From: Thermoanaerobaculia bacterium
Lineage (GTDB): Bacteria; Acidobacteriota; Thermoanaerobaculia; Multivoradales; UBA5704
Reading direction: 5' to 3'
DNA length: 64,000 nucleotides
Assembly (NCBI GenBank): GCA_036275055.1
Contig: DASUEN010000170.1
Location: 8,118-72,117 of the forward strand
The notes beneath the pieces were generated by a model. That model saw only the letters and a list, made by a program, of their open reading frames with translations, ran no database searches and was not told the DNA's origin. This document shows, piece after piece, positions 19,298 through 56,252 of the stretch; position 1 is the first letter of the stretch; each line of letters starts with the position of its first letter. The position numbers and the translations under genes were made by a program.

Positions 19298-19319
19298 CGG
19301 GTGCTCCTATGAGTCTTCT

Positions 19320-19366
19320 CGTTGCTGATCGGTCCGATCCGTCCAATCCGTCTGATCCGTCCGATT
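19320..19366. repeat. 9-bp tandem repeat CCGTCYRAT (x4) in the DUF1800-DUF1501 intergenic spacer
   Basis: gatcggtccgatccgtccaatccgtctgatccgtccgattg. Confidence 0.7.
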
Positions 19367-19371
19367 GCCCC

Positions 19372-21381
19372 TCACCGCCGCTGAAACTCCGGCGAGCCCA
19401 AAATCACCCCCACCACCTGCTCCAGCGGCGTGGGCGGCCTGCGGTCGATGGGCTCCTTTGTTTCATCCCCCAGCTTGCCGCGCACCTTCACGGTTTTGAT
19501 CCCGCTGGCGCCCATCGTCTCCGGGCCGCCGCTCAGGACCTCGTCCTCCGCGTCGCCGCCGCCCGGCGCGCCCTTGGCGTCTTTCGGCGAGGCTTTGTCC
19601 ACCTTCTTCGCCAGATTGGGATCGGTCACCATGGGGGTGAGGAGCTTCAGGGTGGAGGCCAGGTCGCGCCCGGGCATCAAGAGGCCGCTGTAGGTCTTGA
19701 GAGCCGCCTCCCGCGACTCGGGCTCCCGGCCGCCGTCGAGGGCCGGGAGATCGAGATCGACCCCCTTCACCCGGCCGGCGGCGAGTTGGAGGCCGAAGTT
19801 CATCCGGTTGAGGAGCGAGCCCGTGTTCACCCAGGCCTCGGCGCGGTCGGGATAGCCCGTGGGCGCCTGGTAGGCGTAGAGGGGCTGGCCCATACGGGCG
19901 ATCCACTTCAGGGTCTCCTTGGGATCGTCCAGCCGGCTCCCCGTGGCGCGCAGAGCCGAGGCCGCGAGCTCGAAGGGAGACTTGACCTTGGCGCCCACGG
20001 CCTCCTTGCTCCAGAACTCCGGCGACTCGGCGATGGCGATCAGCAGCCGGCGGGAATCGCCCCCCGTCTTGAGATAGACGTCCGTCAGCCGATCGACCAG
20101 CGTCTGCGGCGGATGGTCCGAAACGAAGCGGACGGCGAGCTGCGAGGCGATGTGGCGCGCCGTGGCCTTGTGCGCGGCGAGCAGGTCGAGCACGGCGTCG
20201 CCGTCCTCGATGCCGCGGCCGGCAGGGAAACGGGTGCCGAGGACGGTTTTCTCGCCCGCGTCGTGCTGATCGGCCCGGAAGAGGAACTCCCCTTCGGAAA
20301 CGAAGCCGAGGCCGCCGGCCTTCTCAACCCGGGCGAGGCGGTTCTCCGCCTGCTCGCGGGCCTTACCCGGGGGGAGCACGGTCCAGCCGGTAAAGGCGCG
20401 GGCCACCTCGATCACGTCCTGCTGGCTGTAGCCGCCGTCCACTCCCAGGGTGTGGAGCTCCATCAGCTCGCGGGCATAGTTCTCGTTGAGTCCCTTCGGT
20501 CCCTTCTTCCCCGCACCCGCGGCTTCCCCGGCCTGCTGCTGCCGTTGTTGCTGCGCTTGTTGCATCTTCGCGAACCTGCCGCCGGCACGCCCCTGGAGGC
20601 GCGGCCGGCGGGCGATCTCGTCCTGCATCGTCGTGGTGGCGCCGGCCGGAGCCGCGGACTGGGCATTATCGAGATAGATGAGCATGGCCGGGCTCTTCGC
20701 CGTGGCCTCCAGGAGGTCGCGGAAACGGGCCAGCGAGTAGGGGCGAATGGCGTCCCGCTCATAAGGAAGGAGGTAGGCGCGGGCGCGGCCGTTGGTCAGC
20801 GAGACGTTGAAGTGATTGAACCAGAAGTCAGTCATCACCTCGTTGAGCTGGTTCTCGGACTCCACCGCCCGCGTCAGCTTCTGCACCATGAGCTGACCCG
20901 TGAGCTCCTTCTCCGGGTGATACCCCTGCTCGCGGGCCCAATCCATCACCTTCTGGCGCAAGGCCTTCTTGTCGTCTTTCTGGAGATCCTTGGGATCCGT
21001 GTCCTGGGGCAGGACGCCAGCCTCGCGCGCCTGGCGAAAGACGAGCCCGGGGGGCGGATAGGTGCGGACGATCTCGGCGGTCGCCATGTGCAGGGCCGGC
21101 AGCGTATGGAGGTCCTCCTCCACCTTGCCATCCGGCAGATCGCCGCCAAGCTGGCGCTCGAACCAGCGGTCGAGGCCCATCTTCACGACCGCGTCCACCT
21201 CCCCCGGACGGGGGCCGAACGCGAAGCGATTCAAGAGGTGAGCTGCCGCCTGGCGCTCGCTGAGCCCCGCGGCCTTCCAAGGCAGATGAACCGACGCCGG
21301 CTTGTCGTCGGCAGCCAAGCCGCCCCAGGCCACGAAAGCGGCGAGGGAAACAGCGGTCAAAGCGGTGAGGATGGTTTTCAT
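19372..21381 (-). CDS. DUF1800 domain protein, secreted
   Basis: Start set at MKTILTALTAVSLAAFVAWG (cat at 21379-21381). ..LLNRFAFGPRPGEVD... Usual upstream partner of DUF1501. Confidence 0.8.
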   Translation of the reverse strand: MKTILTALTAVSLAAFVAWGGLAADDKPASVHLPWKAAGLSERQAAAHLLNRFAFGPRPGEVDAVVKMGLDRWFERQLGGDLPDGKVEEDLHTLPALHMATAEIVRTYPPPGLVFRQAREAGVLPQDTDPKDLQKDDKKALRQKVMDWAREQGYHPEKELTGQLMVQKLTRAVESENQLNEVMTDFWFNHFNVSLTNGRARAYLLPYERDAIRPYSLARFRDLLEATAKSPAMLIYLDNAQSAAPAGATTTMQDEIARRPRLQGRAGGRFAKMQQAQQQRQQQAGEAAGAGKKGPKGLNENYARELMELHTLGVDGGYSQQDVIEVARAFTGWTVLPPGKAREQAENRLARVEKAGGLGFVSEGEFLFRADQHDAGEKTVLGTRFPAGRGIEDGDAVLDLLAAHKATARHIASQLAVRFVSDHPPQTLVDRLTDVYLKTGGDSRRLLIAIAESPEFWSKEAVGAKVKSPFELAASALRATGSRLDDPKETLKWIARMGQPLYAYQAPTGYPDRAEAWVNTGSLLNRMNFGLQLAAGRVKGVDLDLPALDGGREPESREAALKTYSGLLMPGRDLASTLKLLTPMVTDPNLAKKVDKASPKDAKGAPGGGDAEDEVLSGGPETMGASGIKTVKVRGKLGDETKEPIDRRPPTPLEQVVGVILGSPEFQRR

Positions 21382-21483
21382 GGGCTTCGGCTCCTGGTGG
21401 CTGGCGAGTGTCTCCATTCTGAACCTGAAACCCTGGAGGGGGGTAATTCCTGCGGGGGTGGGCGGGCCTGATATCCTCCCTCC

Positions 21484-23376
21484 GTGAGCGAACCGGCCGA
21501 CCTCCACGAAGAAGAAGTCCTCGGCAAGGCCTACGACGCGCGCCTCATGCGCCGGCTGCTGGCCTACCTGCGTCCCTACCGGGGGATGACGGTGGGCGCC
21601 CTGGCGCTGATCCTGGCTTCGTCCCTCTTCCAACTCGTGGGACCGCTCGCCACGGCCGTGGCGCTCGACCTCTTCATCCGGCCGCGGGGGACCGAGGCGC
21701 AGATCTCGGCGCCCAGCCTCTTCATCCGCCACCAGCTCCTGGCGCGCGGGATCGACCCGGCGCAGATCGCCGTGCCGGGCTTGACCGTCACCTCCCTCAT
21801 CTTCCTGGCGGCGCTGATCCTCACCTTCATCTCCCTCTATGCCCAGGGCTACGTGTTGCAGCTCATGGGGCAGTACATCATGAACGACCTGCGCCGGCAG
21901 ATCTTCGGCCATCTCCAGCGCCTCCCCCTCGCTTTCTTCGACCGCAACCCCATCGGCCGCCTGGTGACGCGGGTGACCACCGACGTCGACGCCCTGAACG
22001 AGATGTTCACGGCCGGCATCGTCACCATCTTCGGTGACGTCCTGGTCCTCGCCGGCATCGCGACCATCCTTTTCTGGCTCGACTGGCGCCTCGCCCTGGT
22101 GGCGTTCTCGATCGTCCCCCTGCTCCTGCTGCTGACCTCCTGGTTCAAGACCAAAGTGCGGGAGAGCTTCCGTGAAGTGCGGGTGAAGATCGCTCGCATC
22201 AACGCCTACCTTCAGGAGCACATCACCGGCATGCCCGTGGTGCAGCTCTTCAACCGCGAGGCGCGGGCCTATGAAGACTTCGACGGGATCAACGCCGCGC
22301 ATCGCGACGCGAACATCCGGTCGATTTTCTACTACGCCGTCTTCTTCCCCGGCGTCGAGCTGATCACCTCCGTCGGCACCGGCCTGCTGATCTGGGTGGG
22401 CGGCGGCCGGGTGCTGGTGAGCGCCCTTTCCATCGGCGGCCTGATCGCCTTCCTTCAGTATGCCCAGCGGTTTTACCAGCCGCTTTCGGACCTCTCGGAG
22501 AAATACAACATCCTGCAAGCGGCCATGGCCAGCTCCGAAAGGATCTTCCGGCTGATCGATACATCGGTGACCATTGCCACGCCGCCGGACGCCTACAGCC
22601 CGGAGCGGGTGAAAGGGGACGTCGAGTTCGAGGACGTCTGGTTCTCTTATAAAGAGGACGAGCCGGTGCTGAAGGGCGTCTCCTTCCACGTCCGCCCGGG
22701 CGAGACCCTGGCCGTGGTGGGACACACGGGCGCCGGCAAGAGCACACTGGCGAGCCTGCTGCTCCGTTTCTACGACATCGACCGCGGCGCGCTACGGGTG
22801 GACGGCGTGGACGTGAAGCAGTGGGACCTCGCCAAGCTGCGGCGCAGCGTCGCCATGGTGTTGCAGGACGTCTTCCTCTTCTCCGGCAGCGTCGGCGCCA
22901 ACATTCGCCTGGGAGAAGAGTCGATCGACGACGAGCGGGTGCGCTGGGCAGCGGGAGAGGTGCACGCCCTCCCCTTCATCGAGCGCCTGCCCGGGGGCTT
23001 CGACGCCGCCGTCCGCGAGCGCGGGGCCGGCCTCTCCGTGGGTCAGAAGCAGCTCATCGCCTTCGCCCGCGCCCTGGCCTTCGACCCCAGCATCCTGATC
23101 CTCGACGAGGCCACCTCCTCGATCGACACCGAAACCGAGCAGCTCATCCAGAAAGCCCTGGACCGTCTCCTCGTAGGCCGCACCAGCGTCGTCATCGCCC
23201 ACCGCCTCTCCACCATCCAGAAAGCCGACCGCATCCTCGTCCTCCACAAAGGAGAAGTCCGCGAGTACGGAACCCACCAGGAGCTGCTGGCCTTGCGGGG
23301 GATCTACTACAGGCTTTACCTGCTCCAGTACAAGGATCAGGAGGGGGCGGCGGTGCGGGTGGGGGTGGGGTCGTAG
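21484..23376 (+). CDS. ABC exporter, fused permease/ATPase (MsbA-like)
   Basis: GTG start. Six-TM domain. GHTGAGKST, LSVGQKQLIAFARAL, ILILDEATSSID. Confidence 0.9.
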   Translation: MSEPADLHEEEVLGKAYDARLMRRLLAYLRPYRGMTVGALALILASSLFQLVGPLATAVALDLFIRPRGTEAQISAPSLFIRHQLLARGIDPAQIAVPGLTVTSLIFLAALILTFISLYAQGYVLQLMGQYIMNDLRRQIFGHLQRLPLAFFDRNPIGRLVTRVTTDVDALNEMFTAGIVTIFGDVLVLAGIATILFWLDWRLALVAFSIVPLLLLLTSWFKTKVRESFREVRVKIARINAYLQEHITGMPVVQLFNREARAYEDFDGINAAHRDANIRSIFYYAVFFPGVELITSVGTGLLIWVGGGRVLVSALSIGGLIAFLQYAQRFYQPLSDLSEKYNILQAAMASSERIFRLIDTSVTIATPPDAYSPERVKGDVEFEDVWFSYKEDEPVLKGVSFHVRPGETLAVVGHTGAGKSTLASLLLRFYDIDRGALRVDGVDVKQWDLAKLRRSVAMVLQDVFLFSGSVGANIRLGEESIDDERVRWAAGEVHALPFIERLPGGFDAAVRERGAGLSVGQKQLIAFARALAFDPSILILDEATSSIDTETEQLIQKALDRLLVGRTSVVIAHRLSTIQKADRILVLHKGEVREYGTHQELLALRGIYYRLYLLQYKDQEGAAVRVGVGS

Positions 23377-23509
23377 GGCCCTCGCGGGGTAGCCGATCGG
23401 TCTCTGGCTTCGTAGCGAGGCGGCTCAGGTTTTGGTAAGCTCAACGGCGAACGAGGGCTCGGGTGAAGCATCGTGCTCGGCCGGATTACGAAATTCAGGA
23501 GAGGTTCGG

Positions 23510-23737
23510 ATGAGCGCTTCCACTGCTGCTTCGGTGTTTGACCTCAGCCCATCGGAGAAGCTTCAACTCGTTGAGGATCTATGGGATGACCTTGCGAGTA
23601 CCTCCAATGCCGTGCCGGTCCATGATTGGCAGAAGCAAGAGCTCGCCCATAGGAAGGCAAACCTGGCGGAGAATCCAGCGTCTGGCCTGACCTGGGAAAA
23701 AGTGAAGCGACGGTTTCGTGACCGCTATGGCCGCTGA
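23510..23737 (+). CDS. putative addiction-module antitoxin (75 aa), orphan
   Basis: AGGAGAGG RBS. ..LSPSEKLQLVEDLWDDL..VPVHDWQKQEL..R... Its stop overlaps the ATG of a truncated downstream ORF. Confidence 0.6.
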   Translation: MSASTAASVFDLSPSEKLQLVEDLWDDLASTSNAVPVHDWQKQELAHRKANLAENPASGLTWEKVKRRFRDRYGR

Positions 23738-23925
23738 GTTGATCGTCGCGCCGGCCACCTCCTCGACCGAAACCGAGCAACTCATCCAGAAAGCCCTGGA
23801 CCGTCTCCTCGTGAGACGTGCCCGTGTCGTCATCGACCGCCACCTCTCCACCATTCAGAGAGCCGACTGCGTCCTCGTCCTCTAAAAAGGAGAAGCCCGC
23901 GAGTACCGGCCTCCACCAGGGACTC
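23727..23925 (+). pseudogene. chimeric remnant: about 8 codons of a toxin-like start fused to a degenerate copy of the ABC-exporter 3' end
   Basis: 23753-23925 aligns with 23109-23287 (roughly 85% by eye) with a 6-bp deletion and an in-frame TAA at 23883. Confidence 0.75.
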
Positions 23926-23944
23926 CGCATTTCATGGCATGGAC

Positions 23945-24496
23945 TCAGCCTTCGAGTTCGCGGATTCTCTCCTTGGCTTCTTCGATCTGTTTCCTCAGAG
24001 CAAACTTCTGAGAGGAGTCAGCGGCGATAGCCTCTTGCTCTTGGAAAAAAGCCAACTTCTCCTTCCAAAGAGTCAGCGCGCGGCCCTTTGGACTCTCCTC
24101 GGCGGTGGGCGAGATGGTTGCTGGTCTACTTGCATGTGCATCGTGGCCTAGTAGATCAGCGATTTCGCCGGCGAGAGAGGAGAGGTCCTTCTCGATCTGG
24201 ACCGCGCTGCCGTCGGCAAGCGGCCGGCCGTCCTTGGGCCGGGCCTGGATCCCCGCCAGCCAGGCAACTCGTTGCCAAGGGCAAGGCCAAAGGATCAAAG
24301 GGATGATTCGCAAGCCTTCTTCTGCTCGGCGCTCAAGCAGACGGGGCACTTCGGTGCCGCGGATGAAACCGGAGGTCAAAAAGTCGGCCGAGATTAGTAG
24401 AACGGCGATACCGGCTCCCCCCATGGCTACCTCGATCTCGGTTTGCCAAGCATCGCCTGCGGCGATCCTTCGGTCATCCCAGACTTCGAAGACCCC
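23945..24496 (-). CDS. remainder of the TIR domain plus coiled-coil tail (frame B, continuation of 24427..27699)
   Basis: Frame is open from 24496: GVFEVWDDRRIAAGDAWQTEIEVAMGGAGIAVLLISADFLTSGFIRGTEVP..RIIPLILWPCPW.. then ..LWKEKLAFFQEQEAIAADSSQKFALRKQIEEAKERIRELEG. Confidence 0.75.
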   Translation of the reverse strand, partial: GVFEVWDDRRIAAGDAWQTEIEVAMGGAGIAVLLISADFLTSGFIRGTEVPRLLERRAEEGLRIIPLILWPCPWQRVAWLAGIQARPKDGRPLADGSAVQIEKDLSSLAGEIADLLGHDAHASRPATISPTAEESPKGRALTLWKEKLAFFQEQEAIAADSSQKFALRKQIEEAKERIRELEG

Positions 24497-27400
24497 TCAA
24501 GCTCCAGGACACGCAACTGGCGGAGGAGCTTATCTTTCCATACCTCGTCTTGGTGGCTATAGCTAATGAAGACTTTGGGCTTCGATCGCTCAGTCATAGG
24601 GTGCCGATCTCCTTTAGTCAATGGAACCGAATGCAAGGCAACATGCGTCATAGCGCTGTGGACGAAACTCGAGAGGCGGAGAGACTCGCCAGGTTGTATT
24701 GCAGACCCTTTTGCTACAGTTAGGACCGCCTCTCGGCCCAGCCGGCGGTAGCTCTCGAACTGCGCCTCGCTGCTCCACGACTCGATCTTCTCCTGAGGAA
24801 ACTCAGGGTAGGACCGGGCATAGGTGACTATTTCGTAAGGCTCGCTGCCACAAAGCATCGGCTTGAAAAAGATTAGTGTGCCATCCCTCGCCCCGGGTCC
24901 ATCAACTGCGGAGTAGCGAATTAGGCCGAGTGCGCAGTAACGAGGCGCACTGTTTGCGTTTGTGAACGAAGGCATCTGCTCTTTCAGGTCGATTGGCACC
25001 CCGGTCTCAACCTGCGTCCTTTGCAGGGCTATGACCAATGCCTCGTAGGTGTAGTTCGGGTCGTATCCCGCGTCGCATACAACAATTACTCGGCAACGGC
25101 GTCGGATCATTTCGGTTAGGCCGAGGGGGTCGAGCCGGGCTCCGCTCGATAGTTTTATATAAGGGGTCTGTTCGCCCGCCGTACCGAAGGCATGCCTTAG
25201 TAGCAGGGTCACGCGGTTCCTCGGCCCGTTATAGCGGGAGGATCGACGCCCGCAAGGCCCCGGATTGCCCATCCATCTCCCAATCCCCACACTCAAAATC
25301 GCGAGCGCAAACCTGAAGACTGGTGGTTGGTATGGCTCCGCATCCACTCCCGCGATCGCCGTTGTCCGCTCCAAGGACAGTCCCTGCTCTCCGCCGTAGA
25401 CCTGGGTTCGCCGGTAGCCGAGCCCCGCGCTACCGCAGTGCAGTGGAGACGCCGTGAAATTCTCTAGCCGGCGTTCATTCCAAGAGAGTTCGCCTACATC
25501 CATTACCTCCATTGCCATTTGAGTCAACAGTAGAGGCCGGTTACGCTGCAGGTCGTGGAGATAAAGAGGGTCCGTTGGACCTGTACTCGAGTTCAGGCCG
25601 CGAAGTCGGTGGCTGGCAGCGAGATAAGCACGGGCAACGCGCTCCCGCAACATCATCTGAACCGAAAACCGGCTACCACTGGCCAAACGCCCTAGCGCAA
25701 TGCCAAACCCTAAAAGGGAGAGAATGACAATCAGTAAGAAGAACGTATATAAGGAAAGTTCCCGTAGTTCCCGTGGATAGTAATAGTAGAAGGCATAGCC
25801 ACTCCAACTTGCGGGGAACGCACGAAGATAGCTCTGTGCACAAATCGAAATGAAGGCGAGGAATGTTCCCCAGAAAAAGGGGGGCACGACGACGAGCAGG
25901 AGTCTTCTCCCCAGGAGGCCTATTGCTGCCCTTTCCTTCTGTCCTGCACCTGGCCGGCAGAGCCAGAGCATCACTCCGCCGAAGCCCACTGCAGCCATCA
26001 GCAGAGCGCACTTCTTTAACAAGGTCCAAAATATACTTGGCGCGTAGAATGCTAGAATGCTAGCGCTCGACCAAAGAAGAATGGCAACGGCGATCCACTT
26101 CGACCAACGGAGCCACAACTCGCGGCTGACGGTAGCAACCTCGGTGGGATAGCGACCTCCTTCAGCGAGGCCGGTCACGGCAACGAACACCGCATTGCCG
26201 ATCAACATGGGTCCAAGCACAAGCCCAGGTCCCAGGATTTCGTAAAGCGAATGGGGGGCGCTTACGATCCAGGGAAGCCAGCCTTTGAGGGCCAAGGTGT
26301 ATATCGCCATCTCCACCACGCCGCGGCAAAGCAGAGCGACGAGATCCACCCAAAGAAAAGAGAGTTGGCGCCCAAACGGCCATCTTTGGGCTAGGACCCC
26401 GGCCACCAGAGCCACCATTGGCACAACGATTGACCACATCAGGCAGCACAGCAGCACATCAGGTGTGTACAGCACGTGCCCGGGATGTCGACTGCTGAAA
26501 AAAGAGACAGAAAGAATAATTAGAGACGTGGCCAAAAGCGTCAAATGGAGCGCTAGTTTGAGGCGCAGTGGTCGGGGCAGAATCCTCTCCAGGGATTTGT
26601 GCACCGGGTGGGCACTGACTCGCAGGGAGTTCATGAAGAAAAGTGCAACGCCGTGGAGGCAGATAGCTATCCACCAAAGACTCTTTGGGCTCGGAATCAG
26701 TTCTTGCATCCAAATTGGCTTAGAGATGGTAAGAAGCGGCACCACCAGAGCCGCGGCTAGGATCGGCAGGAGGACGAACAGGTCGAATGCGAAGTCCACC
26801 AAAGACGCCAGGAAATTTCCTTTCTGTGTGAGGACGTTGCGGTGATGGCGCAGGAACCTGACTGCCTCCTCTTCTTGGCTCTCCCCTCCGAGGTCGCTTG
26901 GTATTCTTTGCGCAGTCTGATCAGAGCTTCCAGCTCGGTGGGTCAGAGCGACGAACCAACTTGCGATAAAGCTTCCGCCCGAAACACTCGACAGGTAGTC
27001 GAATCTTGAGAGCAGACCGATCTTAGCTAGACCCTGCATGACTCCGAGACCAAAGATCGCGCCTCGCACCCCGTCCCCTGCTAGGCAAAGCCCAGCAAGG
27101 CCATCCGTGTCAACGTCCTCCGAAGATCGCCTGTGTATAATCCGGCGTAGCGCGGCAAGCCTCTCTTTCTCGTTTGCCCGAGGATCACTGACCATAGAAT
27201 CGGCTGCGAGTTCCACCCTCCAGCGCGGTCGGAGCGCTTCATACTCCTCTCGAAGCACCTCGGCAGCAGTGAGAACCCGATTGACTCCTGCCACTAGGCC
27301 CACCGCGATTCTGCGCGGCTCCGAGCCATAGACAGTAACCTGGATCCTGATCACGGCCTTGGCTTCTTGTCCCTCCTTGCCGCCGCGGCATGCGACAGGG

Positions 27401-27699
27401 ATCGTGACTCGAACTGGCTGCTGGGAGTCGAGCGCTACGATCTTTGCTGCCTCCACCGCAAAGCGAAACAGACCGACCTCCTGTATCGGCTCAACCTCGA
27501 CCCGGAGATCCTTCACCGCTTCCGGTGCACAGCCAACAAGAAGGATGATCTCCCGTCGTTCGTGCCCGCCCTCTATCCCGAGTTCGAACACCACAGGGTC
27601 CGAAACGGCCCTCAGGGAGAAGTTTTGTGTCTCCAAAGGTACCTCCGAAACAAGTATGGCTCTGTGTGAGTGTAACTCACCAGCCAGAGCGTGCAGCAA
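24427..27699 (-). CDS. patatin-like lipase domain split by a polytopic membrane region, then the first part of a TIR domain (frame A of a frameshifted gene)
   Basis: GLCLAGDGVRGAIFGLGVMQGL; FDYLSSVSGGSFIASW; about 10-12 hydrophobic helices; ..RRRCRVIVVCDAGYDPNY..; KVFISYSHQDEVWKDKLLRQLRVLELEG followed by 20 junk codons. Confidence 0.75.
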   Translation of the reverse strand: MLHALAGELHSHRAILVSEVPLETQNFSLRAVSDPVVFELGIEGGHERREIILLVGCAPEAVKDLRVEVEPIQEVGLFRFAVEAAKIVALDSQQPVRVTIPVACRGGKEGQEAKAVIRIQVTVYGSEPRRIAVGLVAGVNRVLTAAEVLREEYEALRPRWRVELAADSMVSDPRANEKERLAALRRIIHRRSSEDVDTDGLAGLCLAGDGVRGAIFGLGVMQGLAKIGLLSRFDYLSSVSGGSFIASWFVALTHRAGSSDQTAQRIPSDLGGESQEEEAVRFLRHHRNVLTQKGNFLASLVDFAFDLFVLLPILAAALVVPLLTISKPIWMQELIPSPKSLWWIAICLHGVALFFMNSLRVSAHPVHKSLERILPRPLRLKLALHLTLLATSLIILSVSFFSSRHPGHVLYTPDVLLCCLMWSIVVPMVALVAGVLAQRWPFGRQLSFLWVDLVALLCRGVVEMAIYTLALKGWLPWIVSAPHSLYEILGPGLVLGPMLIGNAVFVAVTGLAEGGRYPTEVATVSRELWLRWSKWIAVAILLWSSASILAFYAPSIFWTLLKKCALLMAAVGFGGVMLWLCRPGAGQKERAAIGLLGRRLLLVVVPPFFWGTFLAFISICAQSYLRAFPASWSGYAFYYYYPRELRELSLYTFFLLIVILSLLGFGIALGRLASGSRFSVQMMLRERVARAYLAASHRLRGLNSSTGPTDPLYLHDLQRNRPLLLTQMAMEVMDVGELSWNERRLENFTASPLHCGSAGLGYRRTQVYGGEQGLSLERTTAIAGVDAEPYQPPVFRFALAILSVGIGRWMGNPGPCGRRSSRYNGPRNRVTLLLRHAFGTAGEQTPYIKLSSGARLDPLGLTEMIRRRCRVIVVCDAGYDPNYTYEALVIALQRTQVETGVPIDLKEQMPSFTNANSAPRYCALGLIRYSAVDGPGARDGTLIFFKPMLCGSEPYEIVTYARSYPEFPQEKIESWSSEAQFESYRRLGREAVLTVAKGSAIQPGESLRLSSFVHSAMTHVALHSVPLTKGDRHPMTERSKPKVFISYSHQDEVWKDKLLRQLRVLELEGSSKSGMTEGSPQAMLGKPRSR

Positions 27700-27771
27700 A
27701 GGCTGCGGCGCTTACTTGCCAGTAGGAATACACTCAGCGATCGAGCGGCTGTCCGTGCCTCACTGCCCACC

Positions 27772-27960
27772 TTACGGTTCGAGCCACTTGGCCATCCGAC
27801 GGTCAAACTCTTCTTCGGAAACCGTACGCCCCGCTTCCACGTCCTCGAGCCCATACTCAATCTTCTGTCGAACGTAGATGTGGTACTGGATGTCGTCGAA
27901 GGAGGCGTCTTCCGGCAGGCCCTCCAGGATGCGCATGACTTCTTCTTTGGCAGCGTTCAT
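27772..27960 (-). CDS. small acidic protein (62 aa), antitoxin-like, unassigned
   Basis: MNAAKEEVMRILEGLPEDASFDDIQYHIYVRQKIEYGLEDVEAGRTVSEEEFDRRMAKWLEP. Lies 72 nt upstream of, and co-oriented with, the giant gene. Confidence 0.5.
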   Translation of the reverse strand: MNAAKEEVMRILEGLPEDASFDDIQYHIYVRQKIEYGLEDVEAGRTVSEEEFDRRMAKWLEP

Positions 27961-28460: not shown

Positions 28461-28735
28461 CGAAATAACCATAGACAGCCCAGAATATCGATAGATGGCC
28501 CAGAATAAGAATCGATGAGCCATCGATCGATCGATGAGCCGAAATAAGGATCGATGGCGCAAACTAAGGATCGATGGGCCGTCGATCCATAGATGAGGCA
28601 AAATAAGAATCGATGAGGCGTCGATTAATCGACGGCTCAGAATAAGAATCGACGGGGCGTCGATCGATCGACAGACAAAAATAAGAATCGATGAGCCATC
28701 CTATCAATAGACGAGGCGTCGATCGATCGACAGCT
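28461..28735. repeat. iteron-like array: 8 copies of a roughly 20-bp direct repeat interleaved with four palindromes (three GTCGAT(C/T)(G/A)ATCGAC, one ATCGATCGATCGAT)
   Basis: Direct repeats (consensus cAGAATAAGAATCGATGAGCC) start at about 28462, 28481, 28501, 28541, 28561, 28600, 28638 and 28677. Palindrome cores at 28523-34, 28621-32, 28660-71 and 28719-30. AT-rich relative to the genome. Confidence 0.85.
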
Positions 28736-29093
28736 CATCGATGGATCGATGCCGCATCGTATCGATCGGCGGCGTCTCGTAAGGATCGGTGAGGCTCGTA
28801 GCGATCGGGAGGTCCGCGCCGGAGCAAGTCTCCCAGGGAAACAGCGAGGAGGGATCAGAGCTTGACGCTGGCGTATAGTTCAGCGATCCGGCACCATCTG
28901 CATATCGTCTCGCGAATATCGCATAACTCCGGCCAGGCTGTCAAGAGGCCCTGCCTGGAGAGGGGACCCGGCCGGGGAGGGCTCCAGGTCTGCTGGGGCT
29001 CGACGCTTGGAGCTACTTGTATATGCTTGCAAGTCCATGCCCGGACGAAGGGGCTGGCAACGGTTGCCAACTCCAGCCGGGAGGAGGAAAGCC

Positions 29094-29345
29094 ATGAACC
29101 GGAAGTGGATGCGCGTCACCCTTCTCCTCGCCGCCGTGTTCCTCTCTCTTGCCGCCGTCGCTCCTGATGCCCAAGCCTGCCTCTTCTCCTGCACGACGGA
29201 AGGAGACACCATGAACCTCCAGGACGGCTGCTGCAACGTCGGGCTGTTTGGACCCACCTACCGCTATCGCCTCTACGTTTGCCATAGCGGCTGCTTCCAG
29301 CGGACCAACACCACGAAGTGCAGCCTCACCGATCCGTGCGTGTGA
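29094..29345 (+). CDS. small secreted cysteine-rich peptide (83 aa, 8 Cys in mature part)
   Basis: GGAGGAGG RBS. Signal peptide MNRKWMRVTLLLAAVFLSLAAVAPDAQA. Mature peptide CLFSCTTEGDTMNLQDGCCNVGLFGPTYRYRLYVCHSGCFQRTNTTKCSLTDPCV. Confidence 0.6.
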   Translation: MNRKWMRVTLLLAAVFLSLAAVAPDAQACLFSCTTEGDTMNLQDGCCNVGLFGPTYRYRLYVCHSGCFQRTNTTKCSLTDPCV

Positions 29346-29394: not shown

Positions 29395-29793
29395 TCATCG
29401 AATGGGCTCCGAATTCGCTCGGAGCCAGCCGGCGAGATCCGATTCGGTGCGTTGGCCGTCTGCTGCTGCGATCACGGTGTCGTAGGCCTCGGTTTCCGAT
29501 GCCGTCAACCTCCAGCCGTTGAGCCGCAGGAAGGTGGCGGCGGCCGCAAAGGCCACGCGTTTGTTGCCATCCATGTAGCCATGGTTCTTGACGAGGCCGA
29601 AGAGGTAGGCGGCGGCCAGAGTAGCCAGATCCGAGGTGGGCTCGTAGGCGAGACGATTCTTCGGACGCGCGAGGGCCGACTCGAGGAGATCGTCACCTCC
29701 GGCCCTGACGCCGGCTGTGCCACCATGCTCCATGAGGAGCTCGGAATGAATCGCGTCCACGATCCACCGGGTCAGCCAGCGAGGCTCCTCCAC
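29395..29793 (-). CDS. doc: death-on-curing (Doc/Fic) family toxin
   Basis: ..IHSELLMEHGG..GVRAGGDDLLESALARP.. and Fic motif HGYMDGNKRVAFAA. Confidence 0.85.
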   Translation of the reverse strand: MEEPRWLTRWIVDAIHSELLMEHGGTAGVRAGGDDLLESALARPKNRLAYEPTSDLATLAAAYLFGLVKNHGYMDGNKRVAFAAAATFLRLNGWRLTASETEAYDTVIAAADGQRTESDLAGWLRANSEPIR

Positions 29794-29796
29794 GGG

Positions 29797-30024
29797 TCAT
29801 TCCGCCAACTTTTTGAGCGTGTTGCGATATTGCCGGCGGACCTCGGAAAAGGCTTCCATGGCGTCATGAAAGTCGGGATCATACGGAGTCAGCAGGACTC
29901 CGTTCTTCGTCTCAACCGCGAACATCCGGTCTCCCGGCCGGACCTGAAGCCGCTCCGCCATCTCTTTGGGCAGCGTCGCCGTCACCGATCCTCCCGCCTG
30001 CCTCAAGGTGATTTCCTTGATCAT
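29797..30024 (-). CDS. AbrB/MazE/SpoVT-fold antitoxin (Doc partner)
   Basis: MIKEITLRQAGGSVTATLPKEMAERLQVRPGDRMFAVETKNGVLLTP. Ends 3 nt before doc. Confidence 0.75.
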   Translation of the reverse strand: MIKEITLRQAGGSVTATLPKEMAERLQVRPGDRMFAVETKNGVLLTPYDPDFHDAMEAFSEVRRQYRNTLKKLAE

Positions 30025-30142
30025 CGGCTCACCTCCACTCAAGAAGTGTAGCACAGAAGTAGCACAGAGTACATTCTTGCTGGCCGCGCCTCCTGTCTGA
30101 GCTCCTGGCTGACCGGTTGGGTGTACGGGGCTCGAAAGGATT

Positions 30143-31624
30143 TCACCGCCCATCCACCTCAGCGGAGAGATCGAACATCCTGCGCGCCGCGGTGGAGACT
30201 CCCGCCAGCACGGCTCCTCCAGGGTCCGCGGCGCGCAGGCGCGGAGAGATCACGTCCCGGACGATCTCCAGGCTCACTCGGGAATTGACCGGAGTGCCGA
30301 CGTCGCGGCCGAGGAGGAGCTCGACTCTCTGATCGTCGAGCGACACCAAAAGGAAGATGCCGCGCTCGCTGACCCTCCAAGCCTTGAAAAGCTCGGAGGA
30401 GAGGGTCTGCGACGGGGCGTTCCGCATCGTGCCGACCACCAACACGGCGATCTCGCCGTTGCGCCTGGCCTTGACCGCGTCGCCCAAACGATCGATCTGC
30501 GCCAGGGTCTCCCGGGGAATGCGCCCGCTGAGGTCTACGCACCAGCCGTTGGGGCGAGGGCTGGGAATTTCCCGGGCGGCAGGGGCCACCCGGGCCGGCG
30601 AGGGTACGGCGGCGCGGACGTCAGAAGACGGAGATGGCGACGGCGGCGCAGTGGTTTGCGCCGTAGCGGCCTGCTCCCGGCGGGCGTCCGCAGCCGCCAT
30701 GCCGAGCCATACCGCGAGGCCGGCGTGGGAGGCGATCAGCAGGAAGATCGCCGCCCCCAGCTTCTGACGCATTGCGCTCTTCGTATGCGCTATGACGCCG
30801 AACGGATTGCCGCGGATGAGCTTCAGCACTTTCCGGGGTTGCGGAACGAGCTCGCGCTGCGCCGCCCGGTACAAGCCAATAGCGCAAACTCTTTCGCCGG
30901 GCGGGATGATCGTTTCCTCCAGCGTGTGCTTTCCGGGATCTAGGATGAATCCCGCACCCTCCGCCGTGGTCCGCCAATCCGAGCGCAACTCCCCATCGCG
31001 GGCGGCCGAGGCGTTCCAGGCATACACGTCCGAGACTGCGTCGGCCATCTTCCAACCGCTCCGGTCGACGAATCGGGTCACCTGGAGATAGTCGCCGGCA
31101 TGGGCATAATGGGAGGGCTCCTCCAGGTGCGTGGGCAAGAAACCCTGCGGCATGTGGTTCGGGCTGAGACGGACCTCTCCGGTGCGGGTCCGAACGATCA
31201 GCGGCGCAGTGGCGCTGCCGATGAAGTCCGTGCGAGTGCGAGTTACGGGTCCCTCGTCCGTTTCGACTTTTTCCCGGTGGGAGATCTTGTAGGAGTAGGA
31301 CGCGCACAAGGTGCGGCTGAAGGGCGAGGTGAGAGCCGGCCCCAGAGTCTGCAGCGTACCCACGACGGCTGAGCGCTGGCCGTCGGCCGGCGGCTTTCCC
31401 GCCAGGGCCGCACTGACCAGGCCGTGGTCCTCCCGGGACCGCAGGATGCTGCGCACGGCACCGATCGCGAGGAGGACGAAGATCGCCATCACCAGGGCGC
31501 CCCTCGTGGCGATCTCCGTTCCGTAGCCGCGCAAGGCGAGGTAATACCCCCCGGCGATCGCCAGGTAGAGCGCAAGCCACGGACCCAAGCTCTGTTTCAT
31601 CGCAGCCCACGAAAAATCTAGCAC
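30143..31624 (-). CDS. membrane protein with GIDE-like domain and C-terminal TPM (TLP18.3/Psb32/MOLO-1) domain
   Basis: Two N-terminal TM helices; ..VVGTLQTLGPALTSPFSRTLCASYSYKI..; mid TM helix; ..GEIAVLVVGTM..ELFKAWRV..RGIFLLVSLDDQRVELLLG... GTG start (an ATG alternative lies at 31600). Confidence 0.55.
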   Translation of the reverse strand: MLDFSWAAMKQSLGPWLALYLAIAGGYYLALRGYGTEIATRGALVMAIFVLLAIGAVRSILRSREDHGLVSAALAGKPPADGQRSAVVGTLQTLGPALTSPFSRTLCASYSYKISHREKVETDEGPVTRTRTDFIGSATAPLIVRTRTGEVRLSPNHMPQGFLPTHLEEPSHYAHAGDYLQVTRFVDRSGWKMADAVSDVYAWNASAARDGELRSDWRTTAEGAGFILDPGKHTLEETIIPPGERVCAIGLYRAAQRELVPQPRKVLKLIRGNPFGVIAHTKSAMRQKLGAAIFLLIASHAGLAVWLGMAAADARREQAATAQTTAPPSPSPSSDVRAAVPSPARVAPAAREIPSPRPNGWCVDLSGRIPRETLAQIDRLGDAVKARRNGEIAVLVVGTMRNAPSQTLSSELFKAWRVSERGIFLLVSLDDQRVELLLGRDVGTPVNSRVSLEIVRDVISPRLRAADPGGAVLAGVSTAARRMFDLSAEVDGR

Positions 31625-51867: not shown

Positions 51868-52202
51868 CCGTAGAGACGACACAGGCCGTAACGATATCCG
51901 TTCCTCTACCACGGGGACGGCGGGTCGTCTCCGGGGCGGGCTGGGACGTTTCGAACCCCTCCAACCGGGGACGGGGCGCCGAACGTCGTCCCACCGTCAA
52001 CCGGGGCGTTCCGCATGCACGTCATCCAAATCGTGGGATAGGGCATTCCGCACCTTCGCGGGAACCCCTAGAGGATAGTAAGGGTCGTCCTCGTGCCGCC
52101 GCTACGCCAGGGTGAGGCCGGCCTGTTCCTCCGATCCGGAGACGACCCGCCGTCCCCGTGGTAGAGGAGAGGATATCGTTACGGCCTGTGTCGTCTCTAC
52201 GG
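51868..52202. repeat. MITE-like element: 67-bp terminal inverted repeats flanking a 201-bp core
   Basis: 51868-51934 ccgtagagacgacacaggccgtaacgatatccgttcctctaccacggggacggcgggtcgtctccgg matches the reverse complement of 52136-52202 except for about 3 mismatches. Confidence 0.85.
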
Positions 52203-52326
52203 ACACGGTGTCGATGGGCTCTGCGGTGGCGAGTCTACGGATCGTCCTCGAGCTCCAATTCGTCCGGCAGGTCCTCCAGATAGGGAATCCTCGCAGCTCG
52301 TCCAGAGAGAAGGGGCAATACAACGC

Positions 52327-52809
52327 TCATTCTTCTTCAGCAAGGATTTCAAAAGCTTCCGCAAACGAGACGCTTCGGGTTTCGCGTAATTCGTTCACAA
52401 CCTCGAACGCTCGAAATAGTGCGGCCTTTCCGGCAGGCACCCACTTCCCTGTTGCCCAATCCTCCTGTACCTCAAGGGCGCCAGCACGGCACTCCACGAA
52501 ACGGAGTTTCCCTTCTCGGTAGTCTTTACCGGGCCTTTCGCGGGCCAGTCGAAGCACCTCTTCAGCCTTCAAATCTAATGCCGCGAGAAAAAATGCGTCA
52601 GGATGGAAAGAATGCAGATCAAAACCGAGCCCCAAGAGCTTAATCGCATTGGGCCGTATATACTTAAGAAGGTCTCGAGAGATTTCTTCCCCTATCCCTC
52701 GCTCTACAGATGCGAAAGGGTGAGGAATACCCCGAGGTGTGTAGCCTTCCTGCTTCGCCTCCTCCGGCAATTCATCCGTCTCAATTCGGTTGACTCTCAC
52801 GAATGGCAT
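52327..52809 (-). CDS. hypothetical protein (160 aa), translationally coupled partner of the TIR gene
   Basis: ATG at 52809 lies 13 nt inside the end of the TIR ORF. Low GC. No family recognised. Confidence 0.6.
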   Translation of the reverse strand: MPFVRVNRIETDELPEEAKQEGYTPRGIPHPFASVERGIGEEISRDLLKYIRPNAIKLLGLGFDLHSFHPDAFFLAALDLKAEEVLRLARERPGKDYREGKLRFVECRAGALEVQEDWATGKWVPAGKAALFRAFEVVNELRETRSVSFAEAFEILAEEE

Positions 52810-53813
52810 AATACTCTCAACATTTCGTCCAAATAGCGGTTTATGTTTTCGGCCACCGACGATGTCAGGAGCTTAGGAACGGCAGAGATCCTGCTGCTTC
52901 GCGCTTGATACCCGCAGAAGCCATCGCTCGTCAATATTGTAGTGGCCGTATCCAGGATATTTGACAGCTTAGAACCTCGGACTGAACCCTCGTCAACAAT
53001 CTTCGAAAGACTCAGGTACTCCTCACAGGCTTCGAGAAGCCCCGGCTCACCGACCAACTCCCTAAATGCTGCGTTCAAGCCCTCGAAGTCAAACCAACTC
53101 ACTGGGCCAAGTCTTAACTCGATCGAATAACGTTCCAGAGTGCTATCGACTCCGGACATTGGATTCTCTCTCCAATCTAAAAGCCTGACGTTTGGTCCGT
53201 TGAAAAACACAGCGCCACGCGCCTTGGTCTCGGCTTCCTTTTTGGCGAGAATTTTTTTCATGTGGCCATAGAGCGCAACGGGTGGGTTGAACGGATCGTT
53301 ATCGTAAACTATTTGCACTCGCGAGATATTGTAGAATCTATCGCCGGCTCCGACGAGCCGGATCTCTGGAATATCACGAAACAAGCTATTGCTGGCAAAA
53401 TTCTCGACCGAACCCATTTTGTCATATTCTCTGGCTCTTGAAACAAAGAGCATTCTTGCCGCTTCGTTCTTCAGCTCTGCAAGATTTTGCAGATATTTAA
53501 GATGGCCAACCGGAGCTGGAGGCTTCAGATTGAGTTCGGCAAGCAGGCACCAGATCTCGCGCCTCAATGCCCATGCTATTCCAAGCTCAAATAGTACCCA
53601 CTCTGACTTCAAGCTCTCACGAGAGACAATGACTACAAGATGGGTCGCGCTTCTGACTAACTCTCGAAGTGCCTCTGAGACTGCCTGGCCAGGCACCATA
53701 TTCAGCTCATCCATAAGCACACGAAGACCGACAGCCTCCAGGCATTCTCGTACTTCCTTTGCAAATATGGCGTCCTTGCGTGAATAGCTCAAGAGAAACA
53801 ATGGGGCAGCCAT
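52797..53813 (-). CDS. TIR-domain protein with unassigned 200-aa C-terminal domain
   Basis: LFLLSYSRKDAIFAKEVRECLEAVGLRVLMDELNMVPGQ..THLVVIVSRESLKSEWVLFELGIAWAL... Low GC. Confidence 0.75.
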   Translation of the reverse strand: MAAPLFLLSYSRKDAIFAKEVRECLEAVGLRVLMDELNMVPGQAVSEALRELVRSATHLVVIVSRESLKSEWVLFELGIAWALRREIWCLLAELNLKPPAPVGHLKYLQNLAELKNEAARMLFVSRAREYDKMGSVENFASNSLFRDIPEIRLVGAGDRFYNISRVQIVYDNDPFNPPVALYGHMKKILAKKEAETKARGAVFFNGPNVRLLDWRENPMSGVDSTLERYSIELRLGPVSWFDFEGLNAAFRELVGEPGLLEACEEYLSLSKIVDEGSVRGSKLSNILDTATTILTSDGFCGYQARSSRISAVPKLLTSSVAENINRYLDEMLRVLCHS

Positions 53814-53829
53814 CTTGGATCGTACCTCT

Positions 53830-54081
53830 CTATAGTCCAGGCACGTCGTGATTTCTCGACAAACCGCCGACGGTCAAGCCCCAGTTCGCCTGCCAAGATT
53901 GCGAGCCCGATTCGGCGATGTCGCCCGACACGGCTACGAGATCTATGCGGGAGCCCTTGGCGAAGGTCCCCCTGGCGGCTCCGAGATCCTTGAAGAAGGC
54001 CTTTCCCAGTTTGGTGAGGTCCTCGCCCTTGAAGCGACTGTGGGCGCCGAAGTGGAGGTCGGAGAGATGGAGGATGAGCAT
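53830..54081 (-). pseudogene. truncated, frameshifted duplicate of the 5' end of the metallophosphoesterase::TIR gene
   Basis: MLILHLSDLHFGAHSRFKGEDLTKLGKAFFKDLGAARGTFAKGSRIDLVAVSGD.. matches the first residues of 56458..58332. ..LAGELGLDRRRFV.. continues in another frame. Homology ends just after the GNHD codons at about 53838. Confidence 0.85.
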
Positions 54082-54229
54082 GCGGTACCCCGGGTCTTGG
54101 TTCGTGTCTCAGTCCGTTCGCAGACCATTCTATCCTGGACTTTGGGAGGGGCGACTGCTGAGGTCGGCGCCTGCGTGGCCAGCGGAGTGTCGTCTCGTGG
54201 TACTCTCTAAGTGGAAGGAGATCGTGCCG

Positions 54230-54466
54230 ATGAATGACCAAGTCGTGATCCGGGTCGTGCAGTTCCAGGAGGGTGGATGGCTCGTCGCACAGTGTCTGGA
54301 GGTAGACATTGCTGCCCAGGGCAAGACGGAGAGCGACCTCCACTACCAGTTGGGCCGCCTGCTGGTGGGGCGGATCCTGGCGAGCGAGATGCTTGGAGTC
54401 GAGCCCTTCGCTACCCTGCCTCCTGCGCCGAAGCGGTATTGGGACATGTACACCGGGGCAGGATAA
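54230..54466 (+). CDS. small protein, tentatively HicB-like antitoxin fold
   Basis: GGAAGGAG RBS. MNDQVVIRVVQFQEGGWLVAQCLEVDIAAQGKTESDLHYQL.. Confidence 0.4.
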   Translation: MNDQVVIRVVQFQEGGWLVAQCLEVDIAAQGKTESDLHYQLGRLLVGRILASEMLGVEPFATLPPAPKRYWDMYTGAG

Positions 54467-54513
54467 GGGGGCTGGTACTATACTGGCTTGGGTAGGCACC
54501 ATCTGGAGGCGGT

Positions 54514-54762
54514 ATGGCTAGAACCAGAGAAGCACAGGTTTTGCTGGAATCCGAGGAGTACGAATGGTTGGAAGCCATTGCGGCTCAACGCCGGACCTCC
54601 GTCTCGGACTTGATTCGCGAAGCCGTTCGGGACCGGTATCTCTCACTCGCCGAACAGCGTAAGAGAGCCTTCGAGGCAATCTGTCAGATCCACATTCCGA
54701 TCCCAGATTGGGACACACTGGAAAAGGAGATCGCAGAAGCCCATGACAGCGATCTTCCTTGA
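54514..54762 (+). CDS. ribbon-helix-helix antitoxin (VapB-like)
   Basis: ..EYEWLEAIAAQRRTSVSDLIREAVRDRYL... Its end overlaps the start of a PIN-like ORF. Confidence 0.65.
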   Translation: MARTREAQVLLESEEYEWLEAIAAQRRTSVSDLIREAVRDRYLSLAEQRKRAFEAICQIHIPIPDWDTLEKEIAEAHDSDLP

Positions 54763-54841
54763 CGCGAACGTCTTTTTCTATGCGGTCGGGGCTGATCATC
54801 CTCTGCGCGACGCAAGCCAGCAAGTTCTGCGCCGTGCATGA
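54743..54841 (+). pseudogene. truncated PIN-domain (VapC-like) toxin, 32 codons only
   Basis: MTAIFLDANVFFYAVGADHPLRDASQQVLRRA* is the N-terminal PIN strand with its acidic residue, then a stop. Confidence 0.65.
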
Positions 54842-54883
54842 CCATCCGAGGACGTTGAGTTGACCACTCGCCGGAGGAGCCGA

Positions 54884-55045
54884 ATGTCCACATCGCCACG
54901 CCTGAGCCTCGAAGAGCGGCTCCGCCTGTTCGACGAGGCCACGGAGCGACAGCAGGCACGGGAGGCGGGCAGACCCCCGGTGGACAGGGTGACGGAGCGG
55001 GATTGGCGGCGGGAGGATCTCTATATCCGTAGCAGCTCTCGTTGA
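54884..55045 (+). CDS. small hypothetical protein (possible orphan antitoxin fragment)
   Basis: GGAGGAG RBS. MSTSPRLSLEERLRLFDEATERQQAREAGRPPVDRVTERDWRREDLYIRSSSR. Confidence 0.3.
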   Translation: MSTSPRLSLEERLRLFDEATERQQAREAGRPPVDRVTERDWRREDLYIRSSSR

Positions 55046-55275
55046 CTGCCCCGAAGGGGCAAAGGCATGTAGCCTGGGCGGACGCGAAGCGCTGAGCCCC
55101 GGGAAAAGCCGATCCATCCATCCGTTAAAGCCCTGAAAGGGCGACGGCAGCTCATCGTTCGACAGGACTGCCGCCGCCCCTTCGGGGCTTTAGGGGTTTG
55201 TTGGGCCACATCTACCCGGGGCTGGCAAAAGGCGCCAGCCCCGGGCTACATGCCGTCGCCCCTTCGGGGCTGGCG
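55046..55275. repeat. cluster of REP-like palindromic units (GCCCCTTCGGGGC hairpins with GGGCTACATGCC arms)
   Basis: 55046-55078 is an inverted copy of 55238-55270. A third partial unit lies at 55168-55188. The family resembles the 15241..15382 palindrome. Confidence 0.75.
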
Positions 55276-55334
55276 CAACAGCGCCTTTCTATTTTGTCTC
55301 AGAGCTCGGTGAGAGTCCTCCACGCCGATCTCCG

Positions 55335-55600
55335 AGCCCCTCTTGCCAAACTCCAGATCCTCCAGATCGATCTCCAGGTTGTCCTGGAGGGAGGTCTGGA
55401 GCTTCCAGACCTCGGCGTAGATCCTCCACAGCAAGCTCCAGGTCTTCCTGATCAAGGTCTGGACCCTCTGGACCCTGATGCGGGTCCTCCAGACCTCGGT
55501 CTGGGTCGTCCGCAGCAATCTCCCGGTCATCTGCAGCGAGGTCTGGATCCTCGAGAGCAAGGTCCAAGGCTTCTGGAGCAAGGTCTGGACCGCTTGGAAT
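55335..55600. repeat. degenerate 42-bp tandem repeat (about 5-6 units) built around GGTCTGGA/TCCAGACC
   Basis: GGTCTGGA-like cores at 55456, 55498, 55540 and 55582 (42-bp spacing), plus 55393. On the minus strand this encodes 14-aa repeats (V/I)QT(L/S)L.K.W.LL.R. Confidence 0.75.
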
Positions 55601-55917: not shown

Positions 55918-55918
55918 A

Positions 55919-55995: not shown

Positions 55996-55998
55996 AGG

Positions 55999-56225: not shown

Positions 56226-56252
56226 GGTACTCTCCGGTACTCTCCAGAATGC

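Follow-up and report, generated by a model that had tools for sequence, protein, structure and literature searches.

Effector-associated domains (EADs) are defined by an adaptor that is duplicated, with one copy on an effector and another on an NTPase, and the partner that carries the second copy may have its gene at another place in the genome (Kaur, Burroughs, Iyer & Aravind 2020, PMC7159879). Here we examine a minus-strand gene in which a TIR module that resembles the effectors of such EAD-coupled STAND systems follows a long, patatin-like membrane protein. The gene lies in a 64,000-nucleotide stretch of DNA from a Thermoanaerobaculia bacterium (contig DASUEN010000170.1, assembly GCA_036275055.1), which we call the window and by which positions are numbered unless another locus is named. 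A preliminary description, made from the letters alone, had read this locus as a patatin-like, polytopic-membrane and TIR fusion gene split by a 1-nt indel, and had put it forward as an undescribed defense or effector family. We consider a different account probable, namely that the gene is a one-off chimera in which a disabled, fast-evolving copy of a membrane-patatin was joined to a captured TIR-adaptor cassette, which has now been inactivated by a recent 1-nt deletion. Such a chimera is most likely an accident that is decaying, and not a new defense family.

The idea of a recurrent membrane-patatin/TIR family found no support when other proteins and loci were searched. An exhaustive HMMER search of 1.84e9 representatives, a set with the caveat of clustering at 50% identity, lists no other protein that joins a membrane-patatin to a TIR domain among its best 150 hits, and a word-indexed search of 5.8e9 clustered proteins likewise found no second one. 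Those 150 hits are membrane-patatins without a TIR domain or multi-TIR proteins (P0157, P0160, P0163); we infer that a second fusion would not have been missed, because a true fusion should out-score the weakest hit listed. When 80 membrane-patatin loci were searched by tblastn with the TIR cassette, no copy of it turned up nearby. Scanned family members with C-terminal extensions also lack TIR, one of them carrying a P450 domain and the others no recognizable domain in the extension. The earlier remark that nothing of this kind is on record was sound: full-text literature searches returned no described patatin-TIR protein, no membrane-inserted bacterial patatin and no function for the family to which the long module belongs.

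The membrane-patatin-like module and its family

The first 1013 residues of the gene product (features in Table 1) are homologous along their length to a family in which a patatin fold is split by about ten transmembrane helices. The alignment is collinear through the N-terminal half of the fold, the roughly ten helices and the C-terminal half (E = 6.6e-254, 43-44% identity across 77-79% of the query). The word-indexed search recovered 13 full-length relatives of 974-1054 aa (38-44% identity), none with a TIR domain and mostly from Thermoanaerobaculia metagenome-assembled genomes; the closest homologues, of 1014-1054 aa, lack TIR and carry canonical GGGIRS, SVSGG and SDGGHF motifs. In canonical members GGGIRS, SVSGG and LSDGGHF[ED]N are invariant, and the hydrophobic block lies between them. 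The family comprises at least 595 loci confirmed in species-representative genomes (members P0002-P0297), distributed over Acidobacteriota, Pseudomonadota, Verrucomicrobiota, Nitrospirota, Gemmatimonadota, Methylomirabilota and Bacteroidota, and its cultured hosts include Steroidobacter, Massilia and Spirosoma. The HMMER pass gave 3804 proteins at E <= 1e-30, a count in which membrane-patatins and TIR proteins are pooled. One member, P0179, bears a cytochrome P450 domain at its C-terminus, which shows that the family occasionally gains enzymatic fusions there. Its size and taxonomic breadth give this split-fold family a modest value of its own.

Recognition of the patatin fold is confined to its first half throughout the family. 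Members match the first ~50-70 positions of the Pfam Patatin model only, at 24.6-38 bits, with nine of the ten scanned exceeding the cut-off of 27.7 (29-38 bits), and every scanned homologue that has a Pfam match gives this same N-half-only match. A profile of the family compared with PDB sequences finds cPLA2-delta marginally (E = 0.036), over the same half. The patatin block proposed for the window protein stands in part: Pfam sees its N-terminal half, and the nucleophile elbow SVSGG is kept with its catalytic-type Ser exactly as in the family, but the score of 25.2 bits (PF01734) is under the cut-off. The AlphaFold model of a 1030-aa version (overall predicted local distance difference test score, pLDDT, 62) places a β-sandwich at residues 7-118 and about ten long helices at 275-651, with a poorly modeled C-terminal half. 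The helices had been described as inserted into the lipase, and both hydropathy and the model put about ten long ones between the two patatin halves. The sandwich gives weak Foldseek matches to PapD/ASH-like sandwiches and is common only to a Thermoanaerobaculia-type subfamily, the query N-terminus being covered by the closest matches alone.

The window copy departs from its family at the positions expected to matter most for a phospholipase. The oxyanion motif G-G-G-x-[KR] is not present, the window reading GDGVRG (G188D) where 18/18 homologues have GGGIRS. The preliminary description had noticed SSGA in place of a catalytic DGG, and the comparison bears this out: LSSGARLDP (25126-25152) stands where LSDGGHF[ED]N is invariant in the family, with the changes D831S, G833A, H834R, F835L and N837P, so that the catalytic Asp is gone. 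The SGAAxNPNMG block is likewise replaced by AGVDAEP. Eighteen other members share 107 invariant columns; the window copy keeps 65 of these, whereas each other member keeps 89-100%. Set against six outgroup members, it has a mean identity of 28.9%, where all 12 members of its clade have 40-42%. On these comparisons the window copy is an outlier with a clear relative-rate excess. To judge from its motifs, the module is no longer a canonical phospholipase, and we infer that it is at best a membrane scaffold or a pseudoenzyme.

This divergence does not look like the decay of an unused gene. The patatin-like frame is open over 1048 codons, whereas a simulation of neutral substitution on a homologous gene, carried to 39% amino-acid change, produced 8-27 stops, with 0/100 runs stop-free. 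Neutral pseudogene decay of the module was therefore rejected, and the divergence would have arisen in a translated gene under altered constraint, because simulated neutral decay always gave stops. The G+C content at third codon positions (GC3) of the module is 0.62-0.64, compared with 0.86-0.91 in canonical homologues.

The canonical homologues themselves sit in a housekeeping neighborhood and not in a defense island. Four fetched loci from two Thermoanaerobaculia lineages (including L001 1-13165 and L002/L003 7416-13090) share one gene order, in which MFS_1, a 4HBT thioesterase, a small secreted Kazal-like protein, the membrane-patatin and genes of the Fer2/xanthine-dehydrogenase family follow one another; in L001 an AMP-binding enzyme is encoded upstream of the MFS gene. 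The likeness of this neighborhood to gene sets for lysophospholipid and acyl-chain recycling suggests, by analogy, that the family may act in membrane-lipid turnover.

The TIR cassette and the broken junction

The second module, which would occupy residues 1014-1230 of a repaired product, corresponds to a complete protein found elsewhere as a separate gene. The identification of a TIR domain was correct: the repaired cassette scores 48.6 bits against Pfam TIR_2 (PF13676; cut-off 28) and 3.4e-27 against PADLOC ThsB1 (profile positions 2-180), and its AlphaFold model (pLDDT 86.7) has top PDB matches that are overwhelmingly TIR domains (RPP1, L7, TLR1, BtpA, SPARTA, RUN1, AbTir and SARM1). The cassette is 45-75% identical to hundreds of TIR proteins. 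Its standalone relatives, 14 proteins of 206-248 aa and mostly of 207-210, align from the first strand (M..(V/I)F(I/V)SYSH) through the last residue (...KIRELS), and an internal AAGGAG/ATG sits where the standalone genes begin. Of 44 columns invariant in 18 other aligned sequences the window cassette keeps 43, on both sides of the frameshift. The conserved Glu reported previously is retained as the Glu of GTEVP, which is invariant in 19/19 aligned cassette proteins and aligns with the KEL glutamate of PdTIR; it may have a catalytic role.

Behind the TIR domain is a short helical tail that may connect the cassette to a signaling partner. In relatives the tail comprises 45 aa (W.EKL.FLR.QEAI..DP.QKF.LKKQIEEA..KL.ELS), predicted to form a helical hairpin after a disordered linker. 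The standalone TIR genes lie in operons with AAA_16/NACHT-like (STAND-type) NTPases. The motif of the tail appears again in L005/L006 and L008-L010, where the gene directly downstream of the TIR gene carries it N-terminally; in L008-L010 that gene encodes a Pfam AAA_16/NACHT protein. In L007 the motif is found in a 75-aa downstream gene, and in L005/L006 it is also found on the C-terminus of a DUF4062-PNP_UDP effector (motif coordinates: L005 1322-1477, 6480-6618 and 6621-6767; L008 6480-6630 and 6657-6773). By analogy with systems of this kind, the standalone TIR presumably docks on the NTPase via a homotypic adaptor. A 70-aa tail query found no EAD, bDLD or other match in Pfam at E <= 1, and it is possible that the tail is an EAD-like homotypic adaptor without a matching Pfam EAD model. 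If so, a new adaptor would be shared between two effectors, one TIR and one PNP_UDP, and the NTPase gene downstream, at its N-terminus. Within the 64-kb window, tblastn with the tail matched only the tail itself, and 15 open reading frames (ORFs) scanned in the island and its flanks gave no match to a STAND NTPase or to ThsA.

The reading frames of the two modules meet at a single point, as the preliminary description had stated along with the domain order. On the minus strand, ORF 24427..27699 has 1090 codons from its first possible start and ends at a TAG (24427-24429); a second frame, listed as ORF 23945..24424, is open from the G-run at 24493-24496 to a TGA (23945-23947). That run of four G (C4 on the plus strand), across GAG GGG TCT, is the sole overlap of both frames, and one more G there gives the fused reading ...LRVLELEGVFEVWDDRRIAAGDAW..., with the junction ...RVLELEG VFEVWDDRRIAAGDAW.... 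The probable true start is the TTG at 27634-27636, which has GGAGG 5 nt before it, aligns with the N-termini of close homologues and is the start of the deposited product P0001. With this start the product has 1069 aa as encoded and 1230 aa after repair; fusion by one G was thus proposed correctly, but the length of roughly 1250 aa was not. The TIR frame is interrupted by a -1 break after cassette residue 35, which cuts the domain between helix αA and strand βB. All 18 aligned homologues are continuous at this position (0/18 broken), and since the TIR coding sequence shows no decay elsewhere, the frameshift appears to be recent.

We considered whether the missing base is real. A sequencing or assembly artefact, with an intact 1230-aa membrane-anchored TIR protein and hence a new effector architecture behind it, seems to us improbable. 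The break does fall within a homopolymer of a metagenome-assembled contig, and everything downstream of it is perfectly conserved. Technical error is nonetheless unlikely because a second, separately produced assembly (Logan, run SRR25158407) shows the same G4: its 2807-nt contig L011 is 100% identical to window 23783-26589 and gives the same two gene calls. The deposited annotation also divides the gene, into 1069-aa and 173-aa products, and a run of four bases is short for a systematic indel error. A scan of metagenome contigs for other alleles, with 3-6 bases allowed at the run, gave 0 matches. We give little credence to the fuller version of this idea, in which G4 stems from an error or belongs to a minority allele, while an intact 1230-aa protein uses the dead patatin as an anchor, or as a sensor of lipid or envelope damage, for a TIR NADase or signal generator whose tail also docks on a STAND NTPase encoded elsewhere. 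Were it true, the locus would encode a membrane-tethered TIR effector architecture that has so far not been described.

That the break is instead a regulatory device, by which programmed -1 frameshifting, transcriptional slippage or phase variation would control a TIR isoform, is barely credible. The shift needed is indeed -1 and is located at a homopolymer, but GAG GGG UCU contains no X XXY YYZ slippery heptamer, and tracts of classical phase variation or slippage are far longer than four G. The continuity of the cassette homologues at this site speaks against such a device as well, and programmed frameshifting and phase variation were rejected on the absence of a heptamer and the shortness of the run.

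Based on these comparisons, we propose the following origin for the chimera. The first module would have been a fast-evolving extra copy of a membrane-patatin, which kept its frame open while it lost the Asp and ~40% of the family-invariant residues. The second would have been a complete effector cassette of TIR and helical adaptor, elsewhere a separate gene beside STAND/AAA_16 NTPases. Recombination may then have put this cassette, with its own 5' leader (AAGGAG...ATG), on the 3' end of the patatin-like gene and removed that gene's stop. The leader would by chance have been open in the patatin frame, giving a nominal 1230-aa fusion ORF, and the loss of a single base, G5 to G4, after cassette residue 35 would subsequently have broken the TIR domain. 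The present product would be a 1069-aa membrane protein with a 35-aa TIR stub and 21 junk residues, with at most a 159-aa, N-terminally truncated TIR fragment made in addition; no NADase or signaling activity is expected. For the junction this is also the simplest history. The tail of the patatin family can be traced to about nine codons before the cassette ATG, and the cassette leader (TTGACTAAAGGAG...) meets TGA and TAA in the other two frames, which leaves the patatin frame as the only open one. With one frame of three open in the leader, a join in frame could readily have come about by chance (~1/3).

Several points weigh against this account. Foldseek comparison of the 1030-aa model with the PDB gave no patatin or cPLA2 match and matched the N-terminal sandwich alone, weakly; because only the sandwich was recognized in this way, the patatin assignment depends on motifs in the sequence. 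Selection has clearly maintained the patatin-like ORF, which hence does something. Both modules share an atypical GC3 (0.62-0.68), which fits co-residence or a common donor, so that their association was possibly selected. As to the frameshift, the Logan contig is possibly from the same run as the deposited assembly, and a systematic homopolymer error, or a G5 allele in the minority or majority, may be the source of G4. Finally, 64 kb of genome are visible, and a tail-bearing cognate NTPase could lie elsewhere.

Some of these points also bear on whether the pairing was functional until recently. The dead patatin would then have served as a membrane anchor or lipid sensor for the TIR, either fused to it or in a co-translated two-gene operon, and the frameshift would be either a new mutation that inactivates a genuine, though rare, system or a polymorphism among its strains. 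The undecayed TIR, the patatin-like ORF that stays open despite heavy divergence, the shared GC3 and the lack of an in-frame stop between the modules are all consistent with this. We nevertheless judge it unlikely: the fusion is a singleton in both protein searches, an in-frame join arises readily by chance, the cassette keeps an independent Shine-Dalgarno/ATG and a docking tail without a partner in the window, and its surroundings are gene fragments. Under the chimera account, the value of the locus for defense discovery is small, since the fusion is unique, probably accidental and broken. It would offer a snapshot of how a mobile effector cassette, its own ribosome-binding site kept, is captured in frame by an unrelated gene; such captures are material from which new architectures can form.

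The 62-aa gene and the surrounding island

The large gene is preceded by a 62-aa gene that had been described as antitoxin-like. It is real and it does resemble an antitoxin, but it is part of a different, truncated ParE-type module. The 62-aa family has >500 clusters and, among the 120 listed, 79-98% identity, with an affinity to Thermoanaerobaculia; the DNA of the gene is 91% identical to copies on other contigs, and the homology ends at its stop codon. In L093 the gene of a 62-aa homologue overlaps the next gene downstream, which Pfam matches weakly to ParE_toxin, and homologues of the 62-aa gene are followed by ParE-like genes or by nothing. The 62-aa protein has no match in the 80 membrane-patatin family loci, and the small ORFs upstream of canonical patatin homologues encode Kazal-like secreted proteins that show no BLAST match to it. 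A toxin-antitoxin pairing of the 62-aa gene with the large gene was rejected, there being no conserved adjacency and a ParE remnant being present; the 62-aa gene is therefore an orphan antitoxin and no partner of the large gene. A promoter and terminator scan of 23.3-28.4 kb gave nothing useful above shuffled expectation, the one exception being a weak promoter-like site that lies upstream of this gene.

The low-GC (more exactly, low-GC3) setting among toxin-antitoxin genes was described accurately. The interval 23.4-30.1 kb is flanked by an intact ABC exporter gene (21484-23376) and a TPM-domain gene (30143-31624), both of high GC3, with further housekeeping genes beyond them. Island genes have a GC3 of 0.61-0.76, compared with 0.81-0.91 for flanking genes, and the toxin-antitoxin neighbors were confirmed. 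At the left edge of the rearranged patch, just past an orphan antitoxin gene, a fragment of the ABC exporter abuts the stop of the TIR cassette and looks like a gene end displaced by insertion or recombination. A Doc toxin gene and its partner occupy the right part of the low-GC3 patch.

Table 1. Features of the locus and its island, in window coordinates
Feature	Position	Strand	Basis
Large ORF as encoded, 1069 aa	24427..27636	-	Membrane-patatin-like aa 1-1013, first 35 aa of TIR cassette and 21 out-of-frame codons
N-terminal β-sandwich (Ig/PapD-like), aa 1-120	27277..27636	-	AlphaFold strands 7-118, pLDDT about 70-83
Patatin N-half, GDGVRG for family GGGIRS, elbow SVSGG kept	26932..27105	-	Pfam Patatin, motif alignment
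Polytopic membrane insertion, about 10 long hydrophobic helices, aa 275-651	25684..26814	-	Hydropathy, AlphaFold helices
Patatin C-half, strongly degenerate	24712..25674	-	Motif comparison
Internal Shine-Dalgarno AAGGAG	24609..24614	-	11 nt upstream of ATG 24595-24597 (MTERSKPKVFISYSH...)
TIR and adaptor-tail cassette, 217 aa if repaired	23945..24597	-	End-to-end collinear with standalone 207-210-aa proteins; broken after residue 35
G4 run, one base short of the family reading frame	24493..24496	-	Same in Logan contig L011
C-terminal helical hairpin tail (W.EKL.FF.EQEAI..D..QKF.LRKQIEEA.ERI.ELEG)	23948..24094	-	AlphaFold helices 183-204, 208-229
62-aa orphan antitoxin of a ParE-type module	27772..27960	-	Family and locus comparison
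Toxin remnant, first ~30 codons of a ParE-like toxin	27735-27806	-	Comparison with L093 toxin
Orphan addiction-module antitoxin (Unstab_antitox / TIGR02574), no toxin after it	23432..23737	+	Profile match
Degenerate ABC-exporter 3'-end fragment, in-frame stop	23740..23920	+	82% identity over 187 nt to 23096-23281
Doc toxin	29395-29793	-	Profile match
MazE/AbrB-type Doc partner	29797-30153	-	Profile match

Other features of the island and of the wider window were noted in passing. The non-coding stretch between the 62-aa orphan antitoxin and the Doc pair contains an AT-rich tandem array (28464-28717) of ~20-nt units with ATCGAT cores, with super-periods of 39, 59 and 78 and 63-82% matches; iteron-like binding sites are one possibility for it. 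On the plus strand, 29007-29345 encodes a signal-peptide-like segment (MNRKWMRVTLLLAAVFLSLAAVAPDAQA) followed by a Cys-rich region of ~60 aa, with no Pfam or PADLOC match. Farther away, G+C content falls to 0.52-0.55 at 52-54 kb, adjoining an Acido-Lenti-1 RNA (55215-55271), and a tRNA cluster (Ser, Leu, Leu, Ser) lies at 55821-56225; the region 52000-56300 may be a second foreign island at this cluster. The Acido-Lenti-1 RNA, taken with the Thermoanaerobaculia affinities of the patatin clade and of the 62-aa family, points to a probable acidobacterial host. Two long ORFs overlap on opposite strands, at 19309-21471 (+; 720 aa, no Pfam match) and 19372-22725 (-; 1117 aa), an overlap (19309-22725) typical of the shadow-ORF behavior of high-GC DNA.

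Relation to described systems

The 62-aa gene recalls ParE/RelE-type toxin-antitoxin modules in the abundance of its family and in the L093 copy that overlaps a ParE-like gene; the window, unlike such modules, retains only about 30 toxin codons.

Thoeris is the system that profile searches bring up for the cassette, for which ThsB1 is the best PADLOC model, and the cassette has the TIR fold and the conserved Glu of ThsB. Unlike in Thoeris, however, no ThsA (SIR2/SLOG or Macro) match was found among the 15 ORFs scanned, the relatives sit with STAND NTPases, and Pfam ThsB_TIR is below significance on the scanned relatives. A Thoeris identity was rejected, the PADLOC hit reflecting a shared TIR fold.

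The long module is comparable to the patatin/cPLA2-like Ser-Asp phospholipases (for instance CapV of CBASS, ExoU and cPLA2) in its sub-threshold match over the N-terminal half, its elbow Ser and the marginal resemblance to cPLA2-delta. It differs from them in a fold split by a membrane insertion of roughly 380 aa and in the replacement, in the window copy, of many invariant residues along with the oxyanion Gly and the Asp needed for catalysis. The canonical homologues that were examined lie outside defense neighborhoods.

The closest comparison is with EAD-coupled STAND systems. Membership in a complete system of this type fails for want of the core NTPase in the visible DNA: the window holds no NTPase or other carrier of the tail motif, and the cassette, besides its frameshift, is attached to a membrane protein. 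The tail also has no Pfam EAD match, whereas EAD1, EAD7 and bDLD3 match other TIR relatives. What the cassette does share with these systems is considerable. Members of the same TIR clade are fused in relatives to EAD1, EAD7, bDLD3, nSTAND2, AAA_16 and CHAT; the cassette TIR bears a small, non-enzymatic helical adaptor that is conserved in the 207-210-aa relatives; and the loci of those relatives (L005-L010) repeat the tail on the downstream gene, with a PNP_UDP effector in L005/L006 as well. By its sequence, the TIR module is best placed with the effectors of EAD-coupled STAND systems.

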